DNA of 64,000 nt from NCBI RefSeq assembly GCF_053078305.1, contig NZ_CP166879.1; one strand, 5' to 3'. The notes under the pieces were generated by a model. The model was given only the letters and a program-made list of their open reading frames with translations, did not search any database and was not told where the DNA came from. Every line of letters begins with the position of its first letter. Position 1 is the first letter of the stretch. Positions 43,995 through 54,528 of the stretch are shown here, one piece after another. The position numbers and the translations under genes were made by a program.

Positions 43995-44009
43995 TGTGAT
44001 TTTCATCAC
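43995..44009. promoter_or_regulatory. Near-consensus CRP-type palindrome in the gapA-msrB divergent region
   Basis: TGTGA-TTTTCA-TCACG against consensus TGTGA-N6-TCACA. Confidence 0.45.
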
Positions 44010-44128
44010 GATTTAGGTGCAGCCATTTCGTCGAGATCAAGTTTAGGACAAAATTTTGCCAGTTGGTGTTAATGTTTTGTTAGAATCAGTCACGTAATGT
44101 GAGCACGATTAAAGTGAGATGTGAGCAA

Positions 44129-44542
44129 ATGGCTAATAAACCTTCGGCAGAAGAACTGAAAAAAAATTTGTCCGAGATGCAGTTTTACGTGACGCAGAAT
44201 CATGGGACAGAGCCGCCATTTACGGGTCGTTTACTCCATAACAAGCGTGACGGCGTATATCACTGTTTGATCTGCGATGCCCCGCTGTTTCATTCCCAAA
44301 CCAAGTATGATTCCGGCTGTGGCTGGCCCAGTTTCTACGAACCGGTGAGTGAAGAATCCATTCGTTATATCAAAGACTTGTCACATGGAATGCAGCGCAT
44401 AGAAATTCGTTGCGGTAACTGTGATGCCCATCTGGGGCATGTCTTCCCTGACGGGCCGCAGCCAACGGGCGAACGTTATTGTGTTAACTCTGCTTCTTTA
44501 CGCTTCACTGATGGTGAAAACGGCGAAGAAATCAACGGTTGA
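44129..44542 (+). CDS. msrB: Peptide methionine sulfoxide reductase MsrB
   Basis: 137 aa from ATG 44129; two CxxC zinc pairs ([21 protein letters not shown]). Confidence 0.95.
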
Positions 44543-44583
44543 AAAAACGATTCAGCAACTTATTCCACAGGAGCGGAAAAATT

Positions 44584-44856
44584 ATGAATCTTGATGACAT
44601 TATCAACAGCATGACGCCTGAGGTATACCAGCGTTTGTCGACCGCTGTTGAACTGGGGAAATGGCCTGATGGCGTTGCGTTGACCGAGGAACAAAAAGAG
44701 AACTGCCTGCAACTGGTAATGCTGTGGCAAGCCCGCAATAATACCGAAGCACAGCATATGACAATTGACACAAATGGTCAGATGGTCATGAAGAGCAAAC
44801 AGCAGTTAAAAGAAGATTTTGGTATCTCAGCAAAGCCTATTGCCATGTTTAAGTAA
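44584..44856 (+). CDS. yeaC: DUF1315 protein YeaC
   Basis: 90 aa from ATG 44584 with GGAG Shine-Dalgarno; track ORF is 15 codons longer. Confidence 0.85.
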   Translation: MNLDDIINSMTPEVYQRLSTAVELGKWPDGVALTEEQKENCLQLVMLWQARNNTEAQHMTIDTNGQMVMKSKQQLKEDFGISAKPIAMFK

Positions 44857-45225
44857 GTGGTTCATCCCCTTTTTGCCGCGGCTATGAAGGGGATAGCCAA
44901 CAATGACCCCACGACTCATCTCAATTATCTCGCCATGACCTGGCTAAGTCCCAGTCCGATCTCTTGCCGTCGCGTTCACGCCTGAATGACTTCTCCTGAA
45001 CTTAAGTCTCAGACCTATTTGGCCGGTAATCCCTCTCAAATTTGCTCCTTTTGCGTTCCGCCTTCCATCAACCTGTAACAGAACCAGCCATTTTTTGCGT
45101 AATTGTGATCTGAGTTGTAAAACGCAGATCATTATCTGTGTTTTACAGATTTAATGTTGACCTCAAAAATCATGTGGGTAAGTATGATGACCATCTAAGC
45201 AAAACAAAACACAGAGGATGACGCA

Positions 45226-46302
45226 ATGAAAGCACTGGCTCGGTTTGGCAAGGCCTTTGGCAGCTACAAGATGATTGATGTCCCACAACCCATGTGTGGC
45301 CCGGAAGATGTAGTGATTGAAATTAAAGCCGCGGCAATCTGCGGCGCAGACATGAAGCACTACAATGTCGATAGCGGTTCTGATGAGTTTAACTCTATCC
45401 GCGGCCATGAGTTCGCAGGTTGTATTGCGCAGGTTGGTGAAAAAGTCAAAGACTGGAAAGTGGGGCAACGCGTCGTGTCGGATAACAGCGGTCACGTTTG
45501 CGGCGTTTGTCCGGCCTGTGAACAGGGTGATTTTCTGTGTTGTACAGAAAAAGTAAACCTTGGTCTGGATAACAATACCTGGGGCGGTGGTTTTTCCAAA
45601 TATTGTCTGGTTCCTGGTGAAATTCTCAAAATTCATCGTCATGCCTTGTGGGAAATCCCTGATGGTGTTGATTATGAGGACGCAGCCGTACTTGACCCTA
45701 TCTGTAATGCCTACAAATCCATCGCGCAGCAATCGAAATTCCTTCCTGGTCAGGATGTGGTCGTCATCGGCACTGGCCCACTCGGGTTGTTCTCCGTACA
45801 AATGGCGCGGATTATGGGGGCGGTAAATATCGTCGTCGTTGGTCTGCAAGAAGATGTGGCGGTCCGCTTCCCGGTTGCAAAAGAACTGGGTGCGACGGCA
45901 GTAGTAAATGGTTCTACCGAAAATGTGGTGGCGCGCTGCCAGCAAATATGTGGCAAAGACAATCTGGGACTGGTGATTGAATGCTCCGGTGCCAATATCG
46001 CATTGAAACAAGCCATCGAAATGCTCCGCCCGAACGGGGAAGTGGTACGCGTTGGAATGGGCTTCAAACCTCTTGATTTCTCGATTAATGACATTACCGC
46101 CTGGAACAAAAGCATCATTGGGCATATGGCCTATGACTCAACCTCATGGCGTAACGCTATCAGGCTATTAGCCAGCGGCGCTATCAAAGTCAAACCGATG
46201 ATCACGCATCGTATCGGCCTGTCGCAATGGCGCGAAGGGTTTGATGCGATGGTCGATAAAACCGCAATCAAAGTGATCATGACTTACGACTTTGATGAAT
46301 AA
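45226..46302 (+). CDS. ydjL: Zinc-dependent medium-chain dehydrogenase YdjL
   Basis: 358-aa ORF, MDR/sorbitol-dehydrogenase-like sequence. Confidence 0.9.
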   Translation: MKALARFGKAFGSYKMIDVPQPMCGPEDVVIEIKAAAICGADMKHYNVDSGSDEFNSIRGHEFAGCIAQVGEKVKDWKVGQRVVSDNSGHVCGVCPACEQGDFLCCTEKVNLGLDNNTWGGGFSKYCLVPGEILKIHRHALWEIPDGVDYEDAAVLDPICNAYKSIAQQSKFLPGQDVVVIGTGPLGLFSVQMARIMGAVNIVVVGLQEDVAVRFPVAKELGATAVVNGSTENVVARCQQICGKDNLGLVIECSGANIALKQAIEMLRPNGEVVRVGMGFKPLDFSINDITAWNKSIIGHMAYDSTSWRNAIRLLASGAIKVKPMITHRIGLSQWREGFDAMVDKTAIKVIMTYDFDE

Positions 46303-46328
46303 CAACTTTCCTGAAGGAACGTTATCGC

Positions 46329-47708
46329 ATGGAACAGATAACAAAACCGCATTGTGGTGCACGGCTGGATCGCTTACCGGATTGCCGCTGGCATTCATCA
46401 ATGTTTGCCATCGTCGCGTTTGGCTTGCTTGTCTGCTGGAGTAATGCCGTTGGTGGCTTGATCCTCGCGCAGCTGAAAGCGTTGGGCTGGACAGATAATT
46501 CCACCACAGCCACATTCTCAGCAATCACGACCGCCGGAATGTTTCTCGGTGCGCTGGTGGGCGGCATCATTGGCGACAAAACCGGTCGCAGAAATGCGTT
46601 CATCCTCTATGAGGCCATTCATATTGCCTCGATGGTTGTCGGTGCTTTCTCACCGAATATGGATTTCCTTATTGCCTGCCGTTTTGTGATGGGAGTTGGG
46701 CTGGGAGCTTTACTGGTTACGCTGTTTGCTGGTTTCACCGAATATATGCCCGGTAGAAATCGTGGAACGTGGTCAAGTCGGGTTTCCTTTATTGGCAACT
46801 GGTCATATCCGCTCTGTTCATTGATAGCGATGGGACTCACGCCGCTGATTAGTGCAGAGTGGAACTGGCGGGTACAACTGCTTATCCCTGCAATATTGTC
46901 GCTTATCGCTACGGCGCTGGCCTGGCGCTACTTTCCTGAATCCCCGCGCTGGCTGGAATCGCGCGGACGGTATCAGGAAGCCGAGAAAGTCATGCGGAGT
47001 ATAGAAGAAGGCGTCATACGCCAGACAGGTAAACCTTTGCCGCCCGTGGTTATTGCTGATGACGGTAAAGCACCACAAGCGGTGCCATATTCAGCCTTAC
47101 TGACAGGAGTATTACTGAAACGCGTGATATTAGGCTCTTGTGTGCTGATTGCCATGAACGTTGTGCAGTACACACTAATTAACTGGTTGCCAACGATATT
47201 CATGACCCAGGGGATTAATTTAAAAGACTCGATTGTTTTAAATACCATGAGTATGTTTGGCGCGCCATTTGGCATTTTTATTGCCATGCTGGTGATGGAT
47301 AAAATTCCGCGTAAAACAATGGGTGTGGGGCTATTAATCCTGATTGCGGTGCTCGGATATATCTATTCACTGCAAACCAGCATGTTGCTCATAACGTTGA
47401 TTGGTTTCTTCCTGATTACTTTCGTCTATATGTACGTTTGCTATGCCTCGGCAGTGTATGTCCCTGAGATCTGGCCGACAGAGGCCAAACTCCGTGGCTC
47501 CGGTCTGGCGAATGCGGTAGGGCGAGTCAGTGGTATTGCCGCACCTTATGCCGTTGCAGTGCTGCTCAGTAGTTATGGCGTTACGGGAGTCTTTATTCTT
47601 CTGGGGGCGGTTTCAATTATTGTCGCAATTGCTATCGCCACCATTGGAATCGAAACCAAAGGTGTCTCCGTTGAAAGTTTAAGTATTGATGCAGTAGCCA
47701 ATAAATAA
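46329..47708 (+). CDS. ydjK: MFS sugar-type transporter YdjK
   Basis: 459-aa polytopic ORF. Confidence 0.9.
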   Translation: MEQITKPHCGARLDRLPDCRWHSSMFAIVAFGLLVCWSNAVGGLILAQLKALGWTDNSTTATFSAITTAGMFLGALVGGIIGDKTGRRNAFILYEAIHIASMVVGAFSPNMDFLIACRFVMGVGLGALLVTLFAGFTEYMPGRNRGTWSSRVSFIGNWSYPLCSLIAMGLTPLISAEWNWRVQLLIPAILSLIATALAWRYFPESPRWLESRGRYQEAEKVMRSIEEGVIRQTGKPLPPVVIADDGKAPQAVPYSALLTGVLLKRVILGSCVLIAMNVVQYTLINWLPTIFMTQGINLKDSIVLNTMSMFGAPFGIFIAMLVMDKIPRKTMGVGLLILIAVLGYIYSLQTSMLLITLIGFFLITFVYMYVCYASAVYVPEIWPTEAKLRGSGLANAVGRVSGIAAPYAVAVLLSSYGVTGVFILLGAVSIIVAIAIATIGIETKGVSVESLSIDAVANK

Positions 47709-47724
47709 TACGGGTGGATTCAAA

Positions 47725-48768
47725 ATGAAAAATTCAAAAGCAATATTGCAGGTGCCGGGCACAATGAAAATTATTTCAGCAGAAATACCAGTGCCTAAAG
47801 AAGATGAAGTTTTGATTAAAGTAGAATATGTCGGTATTTGTGGTTCAGATGTACATGGTTTTGAATCAGGTCCGTTTATTCCGCCTAAAGACCCAAATCA
47901 AGAAATTGGCCTGGGTCATGAATGCGCCGGGACGGTTGTGGCTGTGGGAAGCCGCGTGCGCAAATTTAAACCGGGGGATCGGGTAAATATCGAACCTGGC
48001 GTTCCTTGCGGTCACTGTCGTTACTGTCTGGAAGGCAAATATAACATCTGCCCGGACGTTGATTTTATGGCGACACAACCCAACTACCGCGGCGCATTAA
48101 CGCACTATCTGTGTCATCCGGAGAGCTTTACTTACAAACTGCCCGACAATATGGACACGATGGAAGGGGCGCTGGTGGAGCCTGCCGCAGTCGGGATGCA
48201 TGCCGCGATGCTGGCAGATGTTAAACCGGGTAAGAAGATAATTATTCTGGGAGCGGGTTGTATTGGTTTGATGACGTTGCAAGCGTGCAAATGCCTGGGA
48301 GCAACGGAAATTGCCGTCGTTGATGTGCTGGAAAAACGTCTGACAATGGCGGAACAGCTTGGTGCGACAGTGGTTATTAACGGCGCAAAAGAAGACACTA
48401 TTGCACGCTGTCAGCAATTTACCGAAGACATGGGCGCAGATATTGTTTTCGAAACAGCGGGTTCTGCGGTCACCGTTAAACAGGCACCTTATCTGGTAAT
48501 GCGCGGCGGTAAAATTATGATTGTTGGTACTGTACCCGGCGATTCGGCAATCAATTTCCTCAAAATCAATCGCGAAGTCACTATCCAGACGGTATTCCGC
48601 TATGCCAATCGTTATCCGGTCACGATTGAAGCTATTTCTTCAGGGCGATTCGATGTGAAATCGATGGTGACACATATTTACGATTACCGTGATGTACAAC
48701 AGGCATTTGAAGAGTCGGTTAACAACAAACGCGACATTATTAAAGGCGTTATTAAAATTAGCGATTAA
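47725..48768 (+). CDS. ydjJ: Zinc-dependent medium-chain dehydrogenase YdjJ
   Basis: 347-aa ORF, MDR family with structural-zinc Cys cluster CGHCRYC. Confidence 0.9.
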   Translation: MKNSKAILQVPGTMKIISAEIPVPKEDEVLIKVEYVGICGSDVHGFESGPFIPPKDPNQEIGLGHECAGTVVAVGSRVRKFKPGDRVNIEPGVPCGHCRYCLEGKYNICPDVDFMATQPNYRGALTHYLCHPESFTYKLPDNMDTMEGALVEPAAVGMHAAMLADVKPGKKIIILGAGCIGLMTLQACKCLGATEIAVVDVLEKRLTMAEQLGATVVINGAKEDTIARCQQFTEDMGADIVFETAGSAVTVKQAPYLVMRGGKIMIVGTVPGDSAINFLKINREVTIQTVFRYANRYPVTIEAISSGRFDVKSMVTHIYDYRDVQQAFEESVNNKRDIIKGVIKISD

Positions 48769-48788
48769 TTAATACGGGAGAACAGAAC

Positions 48789-49625
48789 ATGCTCGCAGAT
48801 ATCAGATATTGGGAAAACGATGCCACAAATAAACATTATGCAATTGCCCATTTTAACGTATGGAATGCAGAAATGTTGATGGGCGTTATCGACGCAGCCG
48901 AAGAAGCGAAATCCCCGGTTATTATTTCTTTTGGTACAGGTTTTGTCGGCAACACCTCATTTGAAGATTTCTCTCACATGATGGTATCAATGGCACGAAA
49001 AGCAACTGTGCCGGTAATAACTCATTGGGATCATGGTCGGAGTATGGAGATTATTCATAACGCCTGGACTCATGGTATGAATTCATTAATGCGTGATGCT
49101 TCCGCATTTGATTTCGAAGAAAATATTCGTTTAACCAAAGAGGCTGTTGATTTCTTCCATCCGCTGGGTATTCCGGTAGAGGCGGAATTAGGGCATGTCG
49201 GTAATGAAACCGTTTATGAGGAAGCTCTGGCGGGCTATCACTATACCGATCCTGACCAGGCGGCTGAATTTGTTGAACGTACGGGCTGTGACTCATTGGC
49301 TGTCGCCATCGGCAACCAGCATGGGGTTTATACGTCAGAGCCACAATTGAACTTTGAGGTCGTCAAACGCGTACGCGATGCCGTGTCTGTTCCGCTGGTT
49401 TTGCATGGCGCATCGGGGATCAGTGATGCCGACATTAAAACTGCAATTTCGTTAGGTATCGCGAAAATCAACATCCATACGGAGCTCTGTCAGGCCGCAA
49501 TGGTCGCAGTGAAAGAAAACCAGGATCAGCCTTTCCTGCATTTAGAACGTGAAGTACGTAAAGCTGTAAAAGAACGGGCATTGGAAAAAATTAAACTGTT
49601 CGGTTCTGATGGCAAAGCGGAATAA
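48789..49625 (+). CDS. ydjI: Class II ketose-bisphosphate aldolase family protein YdjI
   Basis: 278-aa ORF, aldolase family sequence. Confidence 0.9.
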   Translation: MLADIRYWENDATNKHYAIAHFNVWNAEMLMGVIDAAEEAKSPVIISFGTGFVGNTSFEDFSHMMVSMARKATVPVITHWDHGRSMEIIHNAWTHGMNSLMRDASAFDFEENIRLTKEAVDFFHPLGIPVEAELGHVGNETVYEEALAGYHYTDPDQAAEFVERTGCDSLAVAIGNQHGVYTSEPQLNFEVVKRVRDAVSVPLVLHGASGISDADIKTAISLGIAKINIHTELCQAAMVAVKENQDQPFLHLEREVRKAVKERALEKIKLFGSDGKAE

Positions 49626-49629
49626 TGAT

Positions 49630-50577
49630 ATGGATAATCTCGACGTTATTTGTATAGGTGCCGCTATTGTTGATATTCCATTGCAACCGGTCAGTAAAAA
49701 TATCTTTGATGTGGATTCTTATCCTCTTGAAAGAATCGCAATGACCACCGGGGGTGATGCAATAAATGAAGCAACAATTATTTCTCGTCTGGGCCATCGT
49801 ACAGCATTAATGAGTCGTGTTGGTAAAGATGCCGCAGGACAATTTATTCTCGACCATTGCCGCAAAGAGAATATTGATATTCAAAGCCTGAAACAGGACG
49901 TCAGCATAGATACCTCTATTAACGTTGGACTGGTGACGGAGGATGGCGAGCGGACGTTTGTCACAAACCGTAACGGCAGTCTGTGGAAATTGAATATTGA
50001 CGATGTTGATTTTTCGCGGTTTTCTCAGGCGAAATTATTATCACTGGCCAGTATTTTCAACAGTCCTCTATTGGATGGTAGAGCGCTAACAGAAATTTTT
50101 ACGCAAGCTAAAGCCCGGCAGATGATTATCTGTGCCGATATGATCAAACCGCGGTTGAATGAAACGCTGGATGATATTTGCGAAGCATTGAGTTATGTCG
50201 ATTATCTGTTTCCTAATTTTGCCGAGGCAAAATTACTCACCGGGAAAGAGAGACTGGATGAAATTGCTGACTGCTTTCTTGCGTGCGGCGTAAAAACGGT
50301 GGTGATTAAAACGGGTAAAGACGGCTGCTTTATCAAGCGTGGTGACATGACGATAAAGGTGCCAGCGGTCGCAGGAATAACCGCCATCGACACCATTGGC
50401 GCGGGCGATAACTTTGCTTCAGGTTTTATTGCGGCACTGTTAGAAGGCAAAAATCTGCGTGAATGCGCACGCTTTGCCAATGCAACGGCGGCTATCTCAG
50501 TTCTAAGCGTCGGTGCCACCACCGGTGTAAAAAACAGAAAGCTGGTCGAACAATTGCTGGAAGAATACGAAGGATAA
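49630..50577 (+). CDS. ydjH: PfkB-family sugar kinase YdjH
   Basis: 315 aa from ATG 49630; GAGDNF motif. Confidence 0.9.
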   Translation: MDNLDVICIGAAIVDIPLQPVSKNIFDVDSYPLERIAMTTGGDAINEATIISRLGHRTALMSRVGKDAAGQFILDHCRKENIDIQSLKQDVSIDTSINVGLVTEDGERTFVTNRNGSLWKLNIDDVDFSRFSQAKLLSLASIFNSPLLDGRALTEIFTQAKARQMIICADMIKPRLNETLDDICEALSYVDYLFPNFAEAKLLTGKERLDEIADCFLACGVKTVVIKTGKDGCFIKRGDMTIKVPAVAGITAIDTIGAGDNFASGFIAALLEGKNLRECARFANATAAISVLSVGATTGVKNRKLVEQLLEEYEG

Positions 50578-50586
50578 TGAAGGCAA

Positions 50587-51567
50587 ATGAAAAAGATACC
50601 TTTAGGCACAACGGATATAACGCTTTCGCGAATGGGTTTGGGGACATGGGCCATTGGCGGCGGTCCTGCATGGAATGGCGATCTCGATCGGCAAATATGT
50701 ATTGATACGATTCTTGAAGCCCATCGTTGCGGCATTAATCTGATTGATACTGCACCAGGATATAACTTTGGCAATAGTGAAGTTATCGTCGGTCAGGCGT
50801 TAAAAAAACTGCCCCGTGAACAGGTTGTAGTAGAAACCAAATGCGGCATTGTCTGGGAACGAAAAGGAAGTTTATTCAACAAAGTTGGCGATCGGCAGTT
50901 GTATAAAAACCTTTCCCCGGAATCTATCCGCGAAGAGGTAGAAGCCAGCTTGCAACGTCTGGGTATTGATTACATCGATATCTACATGACGCACTGGCAG
51001 TCGGTGCCGCCATTTTATACGCCGATCGCTGAAACTGTCGCAGTGCTTAATGAGTTAAAGGCTGAAGGGAAAATTCGCGCTATAGGCGCTGCTAACGTCG
51101 ATGCTGACCATATCCGCGAGTATCTGCAATATGGTGAACTGGATATTATTCAGGCGAAATACAGTATCCTCGACCGGGCAATGGAAAACGAACTGCTGCC
51201 GCTATGTCGTGATAATGGCATTGTGGTTCAGGTTTATTCCCCGCTAGAGCAGGGATTGTTGACCGGCACCATCACTCGTGATTACGTTCCGGGCGGCGCT
51301 CGGGCAAATAAAGTCTGGTTCCAGCGTGAAAACATGCTGAAAGTGATTGATATGCTTGAACAGTGGCAGCCACTTTGTGCTCGTTATCAGTGCACAATTC
51401 CCACTCTGGCACTGGCGTGGATATTAAAACAGAGTGATTTAATCTCCATTCTTAGTGGGGCTACTGCACCGGAACAGGTACGCGAAAATGTCGCGGCACT
51501 GAATATCAACTTATCGGATGCAGACGCAACATTGATGAGGGAAATGGCAGAGGCCCTGGAGCGTTAA
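50587..51567 (+). CDS. ydjG: Aldo-keto reductase YdjG
   Basis: 326-aa ORF, AKR family sequence. Confidence 0.9.
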   Translation: MKKIPLGTTDITLSRMGLGTWAIGGGPAWNGDLDRQICIDTILEAHRCGINLIDTAPGYNFGNSEVIVGQALKKLPREQVVVETKCGIVWERKGSLFNKVGDRQLYKNLSPESIREEVEASLQRLGIDYIDIYMTHWQSVPPFYTPIAETVAVLNELKAEGKIRAIGAANVDADHIREYLQYGELDIIQAKYSILDRAMENELLPLCRDNGIVVQVYSPLEQGLLTGTITRDYVPGGARANKVWFQRENMLKVIDMLEQWQPLCARYQCTIPTLALAWILKQSDLISILSGATAPEQVRENVAALNINLSDADATLMREMAEALER

Positions 51568-51703
51568 ATACTCAACACGATTCACCTCTGTTTCTGTGAA
51601 AACTGTGATGAAAATCTGTGATTCAAACAGGTTATTTTGAAAGTAAACATCGGTTATGCGATAATCGCGCTAATGTGATGTAAAAAGATACAGGGGTGTA
51701 ATC

Positions 51704-52462
51704 GTGGCGGCAAAAGACAGGATTCAGGCAATTAAGCAAATGGTTGCCAACGATAAAAAGGTGACAGTCTCAAATTTGAGTGGGATTTTTCAGGTAACCG
51801 AAGAAACCATTCGCCGCGATCTTGAGAAGCTGGAAGATGAAGGCTTTTTGACCAGAACCTATGGTGGTGCTGTTTTAAATACAGCGATGTTGACGGAGAA
51901 TATCCATTTTTATAAGCGCGCTTCATCGTTTTATGAAGAGAAGCAGCTTATTGCACGCAAGGCACTACCCTTTATCGACAATAAAACCACCATGGCAGCC
52001 GATTCCAGTAGTACCGTAATGGAATTGCTCAAATTGTTACAGGACCGTAGTGACCTGACGTTGCTAACCAACTCGGCGGAAGCGATTCATGTTCTGGCTC
52101 AGTCAGAAATTAAAGTCGTTTCAACGGGTGGGGAACTAAACAAAAATACACTTTCACTGCAAGGAAGAATTACTAAAGAGATCATCAGCCGCTATCATGT
52201 CGATATCATGGTAATGAGTTGTAAAGGTCTTGATATTAACAGCGGCGCGCTGGACTCTAATGAAGCGGAAGCTGAAATCAAAAAGACAATGATCCGTCAG
52301 GCGACAGAAGTTGCGTTATTGGTTGATCACTCTAAGTTTGATCGCAAAGCTTTTGTCCAGTTAGCTGACTTTAGTCATATTAATTACATAATAACTGATA
52401 AATCACCGGGTGCAGAGTGGATAGCATTTTGCAAAGACAATAATATCCAGCTGGTGTGGTAA
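51704..52462 (+). CDS. ydjF: DeoR-family transcriptional regulator YdjF
   Basis: 252-aa ORF with GTG start, N-terminal HTH. Confidence 0.9.
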   Translation: MAAKDRIQAIKQMVANDKKVTVSNLSGIFQVTEETIRRDLEKLEDEGFLTRTYGGAVLNTAMLTENIHFYKRASSFYEEKQLIARKALPFIDNKTTMAADSSSTVMELLKLLQDRSDLTLLTNSAEAIHVLAQSEIKVVSTGGELNKNTLSLQGRITKEIISRYHVDIMVMSCKGLDINSGALDSNEAEAEIKKTMIRQATEVALLVDHSKFDRKAFVQLADFSHINYIITDKSPGAEWIAFCKDNNIQLVW

Positions 52463-52579
52463 TTTAAGCACACGTTGTCAATATTATTTGTTCCTGCGCC
52501 TGGAAATAAAATGATGATAAAGATGCGGCAAGTGAATTTGCCGCAATTGCTACCTTTTTTAGCAAATCCGAGGCACCCA

Positions 52580-53938
52580 ATGGAACAATATGATCAAATT
52601 GGCGCAAGACTGGACCGCTTGCCTTTGGCCCGGTTTCATTATCGTATATTTGGTATTATAAGCTTTAGTCTGTTATTAACAGGGTTTTTGAGTTACTCCG
52701 GTAATGTCGTCTTAGCAAAGCTGGTAAGCAATGGATGGTCAAATAATTTCCTCAATGCCGCCTTTACCTCGGCATTAATGTTTGGTTATTTCATCGGCTC
52801 TCTTACCGGTGGGTTCATCGGTGATTACTTTGGGCGGCGCAGGGCGTTTCGCATAAATCTTCTCATCGTCGGTATTGCTGCAACAGGGGCCACTTTTGTC
52901 CCTGATATGTACTGGCTCATCTTCTTTCGCTTCCTGATGGGAACAGGAATGGGTGCGCTGATTATGGTTGGCTATGCCTCATTTACGGAGTTTATCCCCG
53001 CGACGGTGCGTGGAAAATGGTCCGCGCGGCTCTCATTTGTTGGTAACTGGTCGCCCATGCTGTCTGCGGCGATAGGTGTGGTGGTTATCGCTTTTTTTAG
53101 TTGGCGGATAATGTTTCTGCTGGGTGGTATTGGCATACTGTTAGCCTGGTTTCTTTCAGGTAAATACTTTATTGAGTCGCCACGATGGCTGGCAGGGAAA
53201 GGGCAAATCGCAGGTGCAGAAAGCCAACTTCGTGAAGTAGAGCAGCAAATTGAAAGAGAGAAGAGTATTCGTTTACCCCCGCTTACTTCGTATCAGAGCA
53301 ACAGCAAGGTTAAAGTAATCAAGGGTACTTTCTGGCTCCTGTTTAAAGGTGAAATGTTACGACGTACATTAGTCGCGATTACTGTTTTAATTGCAATGAA
53401 CATTTCGCTTTATACCATCACCGTATGGATACCGACCATATTTGTTAACTCCGGCATTGATGTCGATAAATCAATATTAATGACCGCTGTTATTATGATT
53501 GGCGCTCCGGTAGGAATATTTATTGCGGCATTAATTATTGATCATTTTCCTCGTCGGTTATTTGGCTCCACCTTACTTATTATTATTGCCGTGTTAGGCT
53601 ATATCTATTCAATTCAGACTACAGAGTGGGCGATTTTAATCTATGGCCTGGTGATGATCTTCTTTTTATACATGTATGTTTGCTTCGCGTCGGCGGTTTA
53701 TATCCCGGAGCTTTGGCCAACGCATTTACGCCTGCGCGGTTCGGGTTTCGTTAATGCCGTCGGACGGATCGTCGCAGTCTTCACGCCCTATGGCGTTGCG
53801 GCATTATTAACACATTATGGGTCGATCACGGTGTTTATGGTACTTGGTGTCATGTTATTGCTCTGTGCGCTGGTTCTCTCCATTTTTGGCATCGAAACGC
53901 GGAAGGTGTCGTTGGAAGAGATTTCTGAGGTGAATTAA
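52580..53938 (+). CDS. ydjE: MFS transporter YdjE
   Basis: 452 aa from ATG 52580; track ORF has 35 extra codons. Confidence 0.85.
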   Translation: MEQYDQIGARLDRLPLARFHYRIFGIISFSLLLTGFLSYSGNVVLAKLVSNGWSNNFLNAAFTSALMFGYFIGSLTGGFIGDYFGRRRAFRINLLIVGIAATGATFVPDMYWLIFFRFLMGTGMGALIMVGYASFTEFIPATVRGKWSARLSFVGNWSPMLSAAIGVVVIAFFSWRIMFLLGGIGILLAWFLSGKYFIESPRWLAGKGQIAGAESQLREVEQQIEREKSIRLPPLTSYQSNSKVKVIKGTFWLLFKGEMLRRTLVAITVLIAMNISLYTITVWIPTIFVNSGIDVDKSILMTAVIMIGAPVGIFIAALIIDHFPRRLFGSTLLIIIAVLGYIYSIQTTEWAILIYGLVMIFFLYMYVCFASAVYIPELWPTHLRLRGSGFVNAVGRIVAVFTPYGVAALLTHYGSITVFMVLGVMLLLCALVLSIFGIETRKVSLEEISEVN

Positions 53939-53990
53939 ATCTTTCGTTGATGGCATCAATTGCCAGATGTGCCACTGACGTGTTTTATTT

Positions 53991-54021
53991 GGCCTACAAT
54001 GCCAGTACAGAATTGTAGGCC
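53991..54021. terminator. Inverted repeat between convergent ydjE and pncA
   Basis: GGCCTACAAT ... ATTGTAGGCC 10-bp arms, REP-like tail. Confidence 0.45.
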
Positions 54022-54030
54022 AGCGTAAAA

Positions 54031-54528
54031 TTACCCCTGTGTCTCTTCCCAGTCTGCCAGCGTATATAGCGTTGCCCCAGCAGCTGACATCTCCATAAAC
54101 GCGTGCGCACTGTCCTGTGGCTGGATATTCACGCCACGACAACCATCGGTAATCACGTTTACCTTATAACCTAACTGTAACGCGTCCAGCACGGTAAACT
54201 TCACGCAATAGTCAGTAGCCAGGCCCATAACGATCAATTCATCGATTTCATGATCGCGTAACCAGTCATCGAGAGAGGTTTTCTGCCGACGGCCGTTATC
54301 AAAAAAGGCACTGTAACTGTCAACTAAAGGATTTTCGCCTTTATGGAACACCGCTGCGATCGCTTTTTGGTGCAGTAACGGATGTAATACCGCTTCACCG
54401 CGCGACTGGCACCAGTCAATCAGGCGGTTAGCGACATCCACCGTACTGTCACCTTCCGGCACGGCGAGCGCGCCACCAGCACAGAAATCATTTTGTAAAT
54501 CGACCAGTAACAGGGCGCGAGGGGGCAT
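54031..54528 (-). CDS. pncA: Nicotinamidase/pyrazinamidase PncA, internally shortened allele (165 aa)
   Basis: ATG 54526-54528 with AAGGAG Shine-Dalgarno; isochorismatase-like N-terminus VDLQNDFC; product jumps from ...SRGEAV to LHPLLHQK..., skipping the segment that carries the metal-binding His residues in homologues. Confidence 0.8.
   Translation of the reverse strand: MPPRALLLVDLQNDFCAGGALAVPEGDSTVDVANRLIDWCQSRGEAVLHPLLHQKAIAAVFHKGENPLVDSYSAFFDNGRRQKTSLDDWLRDHEIDELIVMGLATDYCVKFTVLDALQLGYKVNVITDGCRGVNIQPQDSAHAFMEMSAAGATLYTLADWEETQG

Follow-up and report, generated by a model that had tools for sequence, protein, structure and literature searches.

Characterised members of the DeoR family of transcription factors are mostly repressors. 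At glpFK, the DeoR-family repressor GlpR acts from several tandem operators, placed over the promoter and upstream of it, that overlap sites for CRP, and a phosphorylated intermediate serves as inducer (PMC4117983). Here, we analyse the ydjLKJIHG-ydjF-ydjE catabolic cluster of Escherichia coli in a stretch of 64,000 nucleotides (NCBI RefSeq assembly GCF_053078305.1, contig NZ_CP166879.1; hereafter 'the window'), and we consider it probable that its DeoR-family protein, YdjF, is an autoregulated repressor that acts on tandem and intragenic operators, with co-activation by CRP. The predicted ydjL promoter, PydjL, shares the logic of glpFK, with a CRP candidate overlapping a putative operator, O2, then a second putative operator, O1, then the -35 element. 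It differs from glpFK in that the ydj motif is unrelated to the GlpR half-site, in that the number and strength of the sites are different, and in that the role of YdjF is a prediction.

Among the 'orphan' catabolic clusters of E. coli, ydj has been studied better than most, with no natural substrate assigned to it and no regulation by YdjF described. A preliminary description of this DNA, made from the sequence alone, called the cluster poorly characterised; that wording is not quite accurate, since structures of YdjI and YdjH, in vitro substrate work, induction in the gut, binding of CRP and a promoter of ydjF have all been published. In vitro, YdjH and YdjI favour long-chain monosaccharides ending in a carboxylate (two Raushel-laboratory papers, as summarised in PMC9602453); the same source gives L-glycero-L-galacto-octuluronate, or its 1-phosphate, as the best in vitro substrate and describes it as without natural abundance. 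PydjL, inactive in culture, becomes active as the bacteria transit the mouse gut, and the authors of that study refer to the function and regulation of the promoter as largely uncharacterised (PMC6561318). CRP binds the ydjLKJIHG promoter in electrophoretic mobility shift assays (EMSA), and expression is crp-dependent with a Crp-activation pattern (PMC8085971); ydjF is among the CRP targets obtained by genomic SELEX (systematic evolution of ligands by exponential enrichment; PMC3105977). Genomic SELEX with RNA polymerase identified a constitutive RpoD (sigma-70) promoter of ydjF, TTGAAA-17-GATAAT (PMC3946193). Ishihama's compilation groups YdjF with uncharacterised DeoR-family factors (PMC4797297), and in the literature searched we found no description of a YdjF operator.

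The region in the window is this already known cluster. Positions 44500-54500 match 5425 of 5426 complete genomes, which identifies the DNA as E. coli chromosome, and the gene order in both the best match and K-12 (RefSeq annotation) is gapA, msrB, yeaC, ydjL-K-J-I-H-G-F-E, followed on the opposite strand by pncA and ansA. K-12 (b1776-b1769 region) carries orthologous genes in the same order between the same flanks (msrB-yeaC ... pncA-ansA), at 98.9% DNA identity over 10 kb. The promoter and operator blocks of K-12 and the window are identical, including all four predicted operator sites, and published K-12 data therefore apply to the window. The window differs from K-12 in belonging to another lineage and in a private 144-bp deletion in pncA. 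Its closest strain here is ET350 (99.6%), and K-12 and the majority of strains are 97.7-98.9% identical to it over 44500-54500; only 162 of 5425 complete genomes reach at least 99%, so that for this region the window represents a minority lineage.

To compare regulatory DNA, we used 80 related loci, found by a search with YdjI, and, for footprints within Enterobacterales, an alignment of 15 enterobacterial genera. The region upstream of ydjL (44857-45225) is 369 bp long, as the preliminary description had stated, and the ydjG-ydjF spacer (51568-51703) is 136 bp long. That description had named 45100-45225 and 51568-51703 for footprinting; the conserved blocks do fall within these two stretches. 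Upstream of ydjL, conservation across the 15 genera is confined to 45100-45192, which comprises an invariant TGTGATC, TTGTrAAAyGCAGATC, ATCTGTGTTTTAmAGAT, an invariant TTGACC -35 element and a conserved -10 element. In the ydjG-ydjF spacer, conservation extends over 51583-51665, which comprises CCTCTGTTTCTGTG, a variable stretch, AAATCTGTGATTCAgACAkGTT and an extended -10 promoter. ATCTGTG starts exactly 23 nt upstream of the -35 element in both PydjL and the ydjF promoter, PydjF. When the 220 nt preceding ydjL were taken from all loci, an expectation-maximisation search settled on a 17-bp quasi-palindrome, WTCTKTGTTTYAAAGAT (21.9 bits), with arms TCTGTG and CAnAGA. A position weight matrix (PWM) trained on these regions ranks five matches of at least 10 bits in the 64-kb window, against 1.1 expected and a shuffle maximum of 13.7 bits: O1 (25.7 bits), an intragenic site in ydjL, Oint (18.8 bits), a site in ydjE (12.6 bits), O1F upstream of ydjF (11.2 bits) and O2 (10.5 bits). 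The ydjE site (53657-53673) was taken as a chance match, since shuffles reach 13.7 bits.

The distribution of the motif in the other loci follows ydjL and ydjF. The density of sites of at least 15 bits is 3.4 per kb within the 350 nt preceding ydjL and 0.05 per kb elsewhere, a difference of about 70-fold, and the remainder lie mostly before ydjF or an adjoining transporter operon. Sites of at least 13 bits lie nearly all before ydjL, before ydjF (at -92, in Enterobacterales), at ydjL +307 (in Enterobacterales only) or just 3' of ydjF in Lachnospiraceae. Outside Enterobacterales, 34 of 42 loci with a ydjF homologue have the motif, compared with one of eight without (Fisher p = 4e-4, kinship ignored). 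In Firmicutes and Atopobiaceae as in Enterobacterales, the motif stays 22-25 nt from the -35 element: measured from the start of the best site to TTGA, the distance is 23 nt in 19 of 21 Enterobacterales and 22-25 nt in 33 of 42 other loci. Its orientation is + in all Enterobacterales and - in 38 of 42 others. In several Firmicutes a second full copy, for example TTGACTGAAACAAAGAA, overlaps the -35 element itself. Firmicutes and Atopobiaceae are not known to have CRP. Because of this, and because ydjF is the only regulator that travels with the motif, YdjF is the best candidate for the protein that binds it.

At PydjL, O1 is the top PWM match of the window and begins 23 nt upstream of the -35 element. 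O2 lies 21 nt upstream of O1 in inverted orientation, overlaps the CRP candidate and holds most of a CAGATCA arm (45125-45131); together O2 and O1 form one 15-pair inverted repeat, 45115-45148, and a terminator call at these positions was set aside as being this repeat. The TTGA of the -35 element is invariant and the -10 element conserved across the 15 genera; the predicted start is at about 45192, with a Shine-Dalgarno sequence, AGAGGA, at 45214-45219. The spacer between the two elements holds a right half-site, TCAAAGAT, in other genera, which in E. coli reads TCAAAAAT. The preliminary description had singled out a TGATCTG...CAGATCA inverted repeat upstream of ydjL. The two arms are present (45106-45112 and 45125-45131, 12-nt spacer); they do not make up the best-supported YdjF operator. 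A perfect 7-bp inverted repeat with no more than 20 nt between its arms arose in 1499 of 5000 (30%) mononucleotide shuffles of the 369-bp region, and the repeat by itself is therefore no more than expected by chance. It is a hybrid: the right arm falls within O2, a weak predicted operator, and the left arm within the separate TGTGATC element, which is probably CRP's. The best-supported YdjF operator is instead the adjoining predicted site ATCTGTGTTTTACAGAT (45134-45150), with its relatives.

The TGTGATC element (45104-45110) is invariant in 15 Enterobacterales and absent from Firmicutes promoters. It matches the extended left half of the CRP consensus; taken as far as 45119, the candidate site has three mismatches to TGTGAN6TCACA and a centre at about -80.5 from the predicted start, and it is the likeliest place for the CRP binding that has been published.

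At PydjF, the promoter is the region's best promoter-like site (10 of 12 matches plus TG), has its predicted start at about 51672, is conserved in the 15 genera and has the same hexamers as the SELEX-derived RpoD promoter of ydjF (PMC3946193). O1F lies upstream of it, in a region outside the PWM training set, and scores 14-20 bits in 17 of 23 Enterobacterales loci. Two half-sites flank O1F: a left half-site upstream, within CCTCTGTTTCTGTG, which is nearly invariant in the 15 genera and has unconserved sequence on its right, and a conserved right half-site, TAAACAT (51644-51650), in the -35/-10 spacer. TGTGA motifs in the ydjG-ydjF spacer had been proposed as possible operators in the preliminary description. 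TGTGA occurs there four times (51595, 51604, 51617 and 51674) and CTGTGA three times, and none of 5000 shuffles attained either number. Two of the motifs are conserved across genera: the one at 51595 corresponds to the left arm (TCTGTG) of a half-site and the one at 51617 to that of O1F. The other two, at 51604 and 51674, are Escherichia-specific and thus not conserved.

Oint, the second-best match in the window, covers ydjL codons 103-108 (FLCCTE) and lies 399 bp (about 38 helical turns) downstream of O1, in phase with it. It is present at +307 in 22 of 23 Enterobacterales loci, that is, in every locus that includes ydjL, the exception (L004) being a locus that starts inside the cluster. Among 22 enterobacterial ydjL sequences, third-codon-position entropy in the six-codon window is 0.17 bits, compared with a gene mean of 1.0 bits, the lowest value (rank 1-2 of 353 windows); CTT in place of CTG is the one common variant, and the motif permits either G or T at that position. 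In most Firmicutes the GDFLCC peptide is kept with other codons, and motif scores at this position are negative at all scored loci; the constraint in Enterobacterales therefore lies on the DNA rather than on the protein. GlpR and DeoR reportedly also have distant operators that loop with promoter-proximal ones (Yang and Larson, 1996; Dandanell, Valentin-Hansen and colleagues, 1987). Those operators lie hundreds of base pairs away at glpD and deo, inside the structural gene in the case of glpD, distances to which the 399 bp between Oint and O1 is comparable. The ydjL case differs in that its intragenic site is restricted to Enterobacterales and in that looping is proposed from spacing and synonymous-site constraint only. 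By analogy with these systems, and with the tandem GlpR operators at glpFK that CRP sites overlap (PMC4117983), Oint and O1 may bind cooperatively or loop.

According to the regulatory scheme that we favour, YdjF, made from its own sigma-70 promoter, would bind WTCTKTGTTTYAAAGAT as a repressor. At PydjL, YdjF would occupy a strong O1 beside the -35 element, a weak O2 two helical turns upstream and Oint downstream, a layout that would permit cooperative binding or looping of the GlpR/DeoR kind. At PydjF, YdjF would bind O1F and the flanking half-sites, so that ydjF would be autoregulated, and ydjE would probably be expressed by read-through. CRP-cAMP would activate PydjL through the Enterobacterales-specific TGTGATC element (45104-45119), and, since this element overlaps O2, YdjF and CRP would compete, as at glpFK. 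The inducer would be a phosphorylated pathway intermediate, most likely the product of the YdjH kinase, which would form only when substrate is present, for example in the gut, and would relieve repression.

Several points weigh against this scheme. The motif is tied to YdjF by co-occurrence, with kinship ignored and with a PWM trained on ydjL upstream regions, and eight loci with a divergent ydjF homologue have no strong site. In E. coli, O2 (10.5 bits) and O1F (11.2 bits) are weak, score below the 13.7-bit shuffle maximum and draw their support from conservation, and the half-site over the PydjL -35/-10 spacer is degenerate. The CRP candidate has three core mismatches and an unconserved right half, and the transcription start sites are predictions. 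The centre of O1 near -50 is a position that activators use too, and FucR, a DeoR-family protein, is an activator. Finally, the best published substrate of the pathway reportedly has a modest kcat/Km, in addition to being described as without natural abundance.

The position of O1 bears directly on an alternative in which YdjF binds the motif as a FucR-like activator and, when inducer-bound, recruits RNA polymerase from about -50. O1 and O1F both end 6 nt upstream of the -35 element, with centres at this typical activator position, the PydjL -10 element, AAGTAT, is weak, and the FucR model NF007720 is among the NCBIfam matches of YdjF. A full site over the -35 element in several Firmicutes, together with half-sites between the -35 and -10 elements of PydjL and PydjF in E. 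coli, nevertheless favours repression, and the tandem and intragenic sites resemble the layouts of the GlpR and DeoR repressors. PydjF, moreover, has a near-consensus extended -10 element and is recognised by RNA polymerase alone (PMC3946193), and therefore needs no activator. We regard activation by YdjF as improbable.

Slightly less probable still, in our view, is a reading in which CRP binds the TGTGA-containing repeats of the two promoters, so that the conserved blocks would stem from catabolite control and not from a specific YdjF operator. TGTGA is the CRP half-site, the invariant 45104-45110 element fits the extended left half of a CRP site, and CRP has been linked to ydjF by genomic SELEX (PMC3105977) and to ydjLKJIHG by EMSA and crp-dependent expression (PMC8085971). 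However, a scan of the whole window for TGTGAN6TCACA with at most two mismatches found no match in either ydj promoter. On this ground we rejected CRP as the sole explanation of the TGTGA motifs for all but 45104-45119, which is most likely all that CRP accounts for. The conserved 17-mer has a different geometry, TCTGTG-N3-CAnAGA, its presence tracks that of ydjF, and the synonymous constraint on the intragenic copy is left unexplained by CRP. The motif is also equally conserved in Firmicutes and Atopobiaceae, which are not known to have CRP. It is very improbable that the blocks are merely promoter architecture (UP element, -35, -10) or sites for an unlinked factor, with YdjF regulating other targets or none. 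The blocks are A/T-rich and lie at UP-element positions, and YdjF is listed as uncharacterised, without a known target (PMC4797297). However, UP elements are not palindromic, do not lie inside constrained coding regions and do not come in two to four phased copies; the motif keeps its sequence despite the flip in orientation between phyla, occurs also before a transporter operon adjoining ydjF in Lachnospiraceae, and is accompanied by ydjF as its only travelling regulator. Repression by YdjF from the tandem and intragenic sites, with CRP at 45104-45119, remains the reading that we prefer.

Table 1. Genes, predicted regulatory sites and variable block in the window (positions in the 64,000-nt stretch)
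Feature	Position	Strand	Description
variable block, upstream region and eight genes	44855..53972	.	9.1 kb; present or absent as a unit among E. coli
CRP candidate TGTGATCTGAGTTGTA	45104..45119	+	TGTGA.C invariant, Enterobacterales only; contains TGATCTG arm 45106-45112
O2, predicted YdjF operator ATCTGCGTTTTACAACT	45113..45129	-	PWM 10.5 bits; position conserved in Enterobacterales
O1, predicted main YdjF operator ATCTGTGTTTTACAGAT	45134..45150	+	quasi-palindrome; 25.7 bits, top PWM match of window
PydjL, predicted core promoter	45157..45185	+	-35 TTGACC 45157-45162, 17-nt spacer, -10 AAGTAT 45180-45185
ydjL	45226..46302	+	Zn-dependent MDR dehydrogenase; open reading frame, Pfam, NCBIfam
Oint, predicted intragenic YdjF operator TTCTGTGTTGTACAGAA	45533..45549	+	18.8 bits, second-best match in window
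ydjK	46329..47708	+	major facilitator superfamily (MFS) transporter, anion/aromatic-acid:H+ symporter-like; Pfam, NCBIfam
ydjJ	47725..48768	+	Zn-dependent MDR dehydrogenase; Pfam, NCBIfam
ydjI	48789..49625	+	class II (metal-dependent) ketose-phosphate aldolase; TIGR00167, PF01116, PDB 6OFU
ydjH	49630..50577	+	PfkB-family sugar kinase; RefSeq start; PF00294, PDB 3H49/3IN1
ydjG	50587..51567	+	NADH-dependent aldo-keto reductase (methylglyoxal reductase in vitro); NF049922 equivalog
left half-site TTCTGTG	51592..51598	+	22 nt upstream of O1F; maximal half-site score, 12.7 bits; overlaps first TGTGA
O1F, predicted YdjF operator ATCTGTGATTCAAACAG	51614..51630	+	11.2 bits; starts 23 nt upstream of -35; contains third TGTGA
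PydjF	51637..51665	+	-35 TTGAAA, 17-nt spacer, extended -10 TGcGATAAT
ydjF	51704..52462	+	DeoR/GlpR-family regulator, HTH_DeoR and DeoRC sensor domain; GTG start
conserved hairpin TGCGGCAAGTGAATTTGCCGCA	52524..52545	.	ydjF-ydjE spacer; 8-bp stem; one compensatory change in Yokenella
ydjE	52580..53938	+	second MFS transporter, ydjK paralogue; RefSeq start

The gene content and coordinates given in the preliminary description, eight co-oriented genes on the + strand, agree with our Pfam and NCBIfam assignments (Table 1), and the gene calls entail no change to the genome annotation. Its broader characterisation, of a complete, co-oriented cluster for catabolism of a phosphorylated keto-sugar or sugar acid with the natural substrate unsettled, is likewise supported. 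YdjI is a class II aldolase (TIGR00167, 324.5 bits against a cut-off of 215.6; PF01116, 298 bits; PDB 6OFU is titled 'YdjI aldolase'), YdjH has a PfkB domain (PF00294, 247 bits; structures PDB 3H49/3IN1), and YdjG exceeds the cut-off of the NF049922 equivalog (628.6 bits against 550), its nearest solved structures being B. subtilis GSP69 and then IolS. YdjK and YdjE are paralogues with 43% identity; YdjJ and YdjL are 28% identical. YdjF has the DeoR/GlpR domains (PF08220, 62.6 bits; PF00455, 167.8 bits) and a conserved VTEETIRRDLEKLE helix; conservation of its helix-turn-helix across phyla was discarded as evidence, being a family-wide feature that does not discriminate. YdjF falls below the NCBIfam curated cut-offs of the GlpR, AgaR, SrlR, FucR, DeoR, UlaR, YgbI and YciT equivalogs, with top scores against haloarchaeal GlpR (171.6 against 300) and AgaR (152.8 against 260), which marks it, by sequence, as a separate DeoR-family subfamily.

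The eight genes do not form one simple unit: a separate promoter serves ydjF, and no operator belongs to ydjE itself. Intergenic gaps are 4-26 bp from ydjL through ydjG, compared with 136 bp between ydjG and ydjF and 117 bp between ydjF and ydjE, and the strong, conserved, SELEX-supported promoter before ydjF speaks against a single eight-gene polycistronic operon. In the ydjF-ydjE spacer no PWM match reached 2 bits, and a scan for terminators gave no credible hit on the + strand downstream of either ydjG or ydjF. The conserved hairpin at 52524-52545 (-17.3 kcal/mol, z = -1.8) has its nearest U run 9 nt further downstream; it is not a canonical terminator, and read-through from ydjF into ydjE is therefore likely. 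Possible roles of this hairpin are attenuation, RNA stability or a protein site.

Two other described systems resemble the cluster in enzyme content. In the iol pathway of B. subtilis, a keto-acid sugar is phosphorylated and cleaved by a class II aldolase to dihydroxyacetone phosphate (DHAP) and an aldehyde-acid, and the kinase product induces a DeoR repressor. The proteins concerned (IolR, the PfkB kinase IolC, the class II aldolase IolJ and the aldo-keto reductase IolS) belong to the same families as those of ydj, IolC is the best NCBIfam match of YdjH, and YdjL and YdjJ match IolM. All scores, however, are far below the equivalog cut-offs (IolC, 141.5 against 300; IolM, 183-197 against 450), on which ground a myo-inositol assignment was rejected, and the ydj cluster has no homologues of IolG, IolE, IolD or IolB. 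The gat and aga tagatose-bisphosphate pathways (GatY/KbaY, GatD, GatR/AgaR) likewise combine, in enterobacterial operons for sugar alcohols or amino sugars, a DeoR repressor with a Zn-dehydrogenase and a class II aldolase; the ydj cluster differs from them in having no phosphotransferase-system components and no GatZ/KbaZ partner, and in uptake by MFS transporters. YdjI scores below the curated cut-offs of the GatY/KbaY models (240 against 383 and 186 against 542), and this assignment was also rejected.

Our conjecture for the ydj pathway is that YdjK and YdjE would import an acidic polyhydroxy compound, that YdjL and YdjJ would oxidise it to a 2-ketose acid, that YdjH would phosphorylate this, that YdjI would cleave the product to DHAP and an aldehyde-acid, and that YdjG would reduce the aldehyde. 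The steps are a conjecture because of the two properties of the best published substrate given above. Several features hint that the natural substrate is acidic. YdjK and YdjE are nearest to acid:H+ symporter subfamilies (NCBIfam); a Na+:dicarboxylate-symporter-family gene of Lachnospiraceae sits behind two copies of the 17-bp motif; LIV-type or CUT1 ATP-binding cassette (ABC) systems take the place of ydjK in other Clostridia; and an AlsE-like ketose-phosphate 3-epimerase is inserted in Lachnospiraceae. The cluster is also present in Veillonella and Anaerococcus, two genera not known to ferment more than a few sugars, if any. A further hint is the in vitro preference of YdjH and YdjI for carboxylate-terminated ketoses, as summarised in PMC9602453.

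The ydjL-K-J-I-H-G-F order is complete in Enterobacterales, to which ydjE is nearly confined among the related loci. The order is kept, with swapped transporters, in many Lachnospiraceae and in Clostridium, Veillonella, Megamonas, Anaerococcus, Erysipelotrichaceae, Atopobiaceae and Synergistaceae, where YdjL and YdjI (for example those of Lachnospiraceae) are 75-87% identical to the E. coli proteins. Outside Enterobacterales the enzyme core is constant and accessory genes vary (loci L039, 3479-4174 and 11464-12810; L055, 10867-14186; L049, 1171-4787). A tentative scenario, to which we would not quite commit, is that the ydjL-J-I-H-G core moved together with its regulator and a complete promoter-operator module (the 17-bp site 22-25 nt from the -35 element) between Firmicutes, Actinobacteria (Atopobiaceae), Synergistaceae and Enterobacterales, that Enterobacterales then flipped the site, added the CRP element and evolved the intragenic operator (ydjL codons 103-108, including a Glu-to-Thr change), and that the substrate is not a classical sugar but an acidic metabolite of the gut. 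The last part is suggested by the transporter swaps (MFS acid symporter, Na+:dicarboxylate-symporter family, LIV-type ABC), the occurrence in Veillonella and the induction of PydjL in the gut.

Lachnospiraceae homologues of ydjL (L023-L043 and L067; for example, L039 at about 2190-2215) have a leader of about 100 nt with a conserved, perfect palindrome, GTTTCCGGCCGGAAAC, soon after the promoter, and variants of it, CTGGCCAG and TCCTGGCCAGGA, keep the symmetry. The palindrome may form a hairpin in the RNA or serve as a second site for a protein, possibly in catabolite control. An Rfam search of 44400-54200 and of one such leader returned nothing other than a spurious, sub-threshold mir-2796 match on a hairpin at 53991-54021 in the window.

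Within E. coli, the cluster varies as a unit. The 44855-53972 block is missing from 1163 of 5425 complete genomes (about 79% have the cluster), where about 93 bp of unrelated sequence replaces it between breakpoints at the yeaC stop codon and at about 53973; differences between phylogroups in the presence of the cluster, in agreement with this, are reported in PMC9602453. The G+C content is 42-50% in the block and 50-53% in the flanks. Citrobacter, Klebsiella, Raoultella and Yokenella share the msrB-yeaC ... pncA-ansA flanks, so that absence from 21% of E. coli reflects lineage-specific loss; on the same ground we rejected a recent acquisition of the cluster by E. coli. At the right breakpoint, the 53991-54021 hairpin, GGCCTACAAT...ATTGTAGGCC, resembles a repetitive extragenic palindromic element, and ydjE and pncA converge on it from either side. 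Inside the block, directly 3' of the stop codon of yeaC, ATCCCCTT...AAGGGGAT (44864-44894) forms an inverted repeat that may serve msrB-yeaC as a terminator-like hairpin. The window's pncA (54031-54528) has an in-frame internal deletion of 144 bp (48 codons), with its junction at 54389|54390; this junction splits the match in every complete E. coli genome listed, by best or by spread ranking, that retains that part, including K-12 and the closest strain, and the shortened gene probably encodes a defective nicotinamidase. The gapA-msrB intergenic region contains TGTGATTTTCATCACG (43995-44010), with one mismatch to the CRP consensus.

The operator model is an incremental and testable addition to what is known of the cluster: it provides defined DNA targets for YdjF binding assays and a rationale for reporters with a ydjF knockout or operator mutants. 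PydjL and YdjF as a sensor, or products of YdjH as inducers, would offer a route to the substrate, and, if the substrate is indeed an acidic gut metabolite, PydjL and YdjF would be a ready-made biosensor for it. Since the system is conserved across phyla, the answer would apply to many gut Clostridia too.

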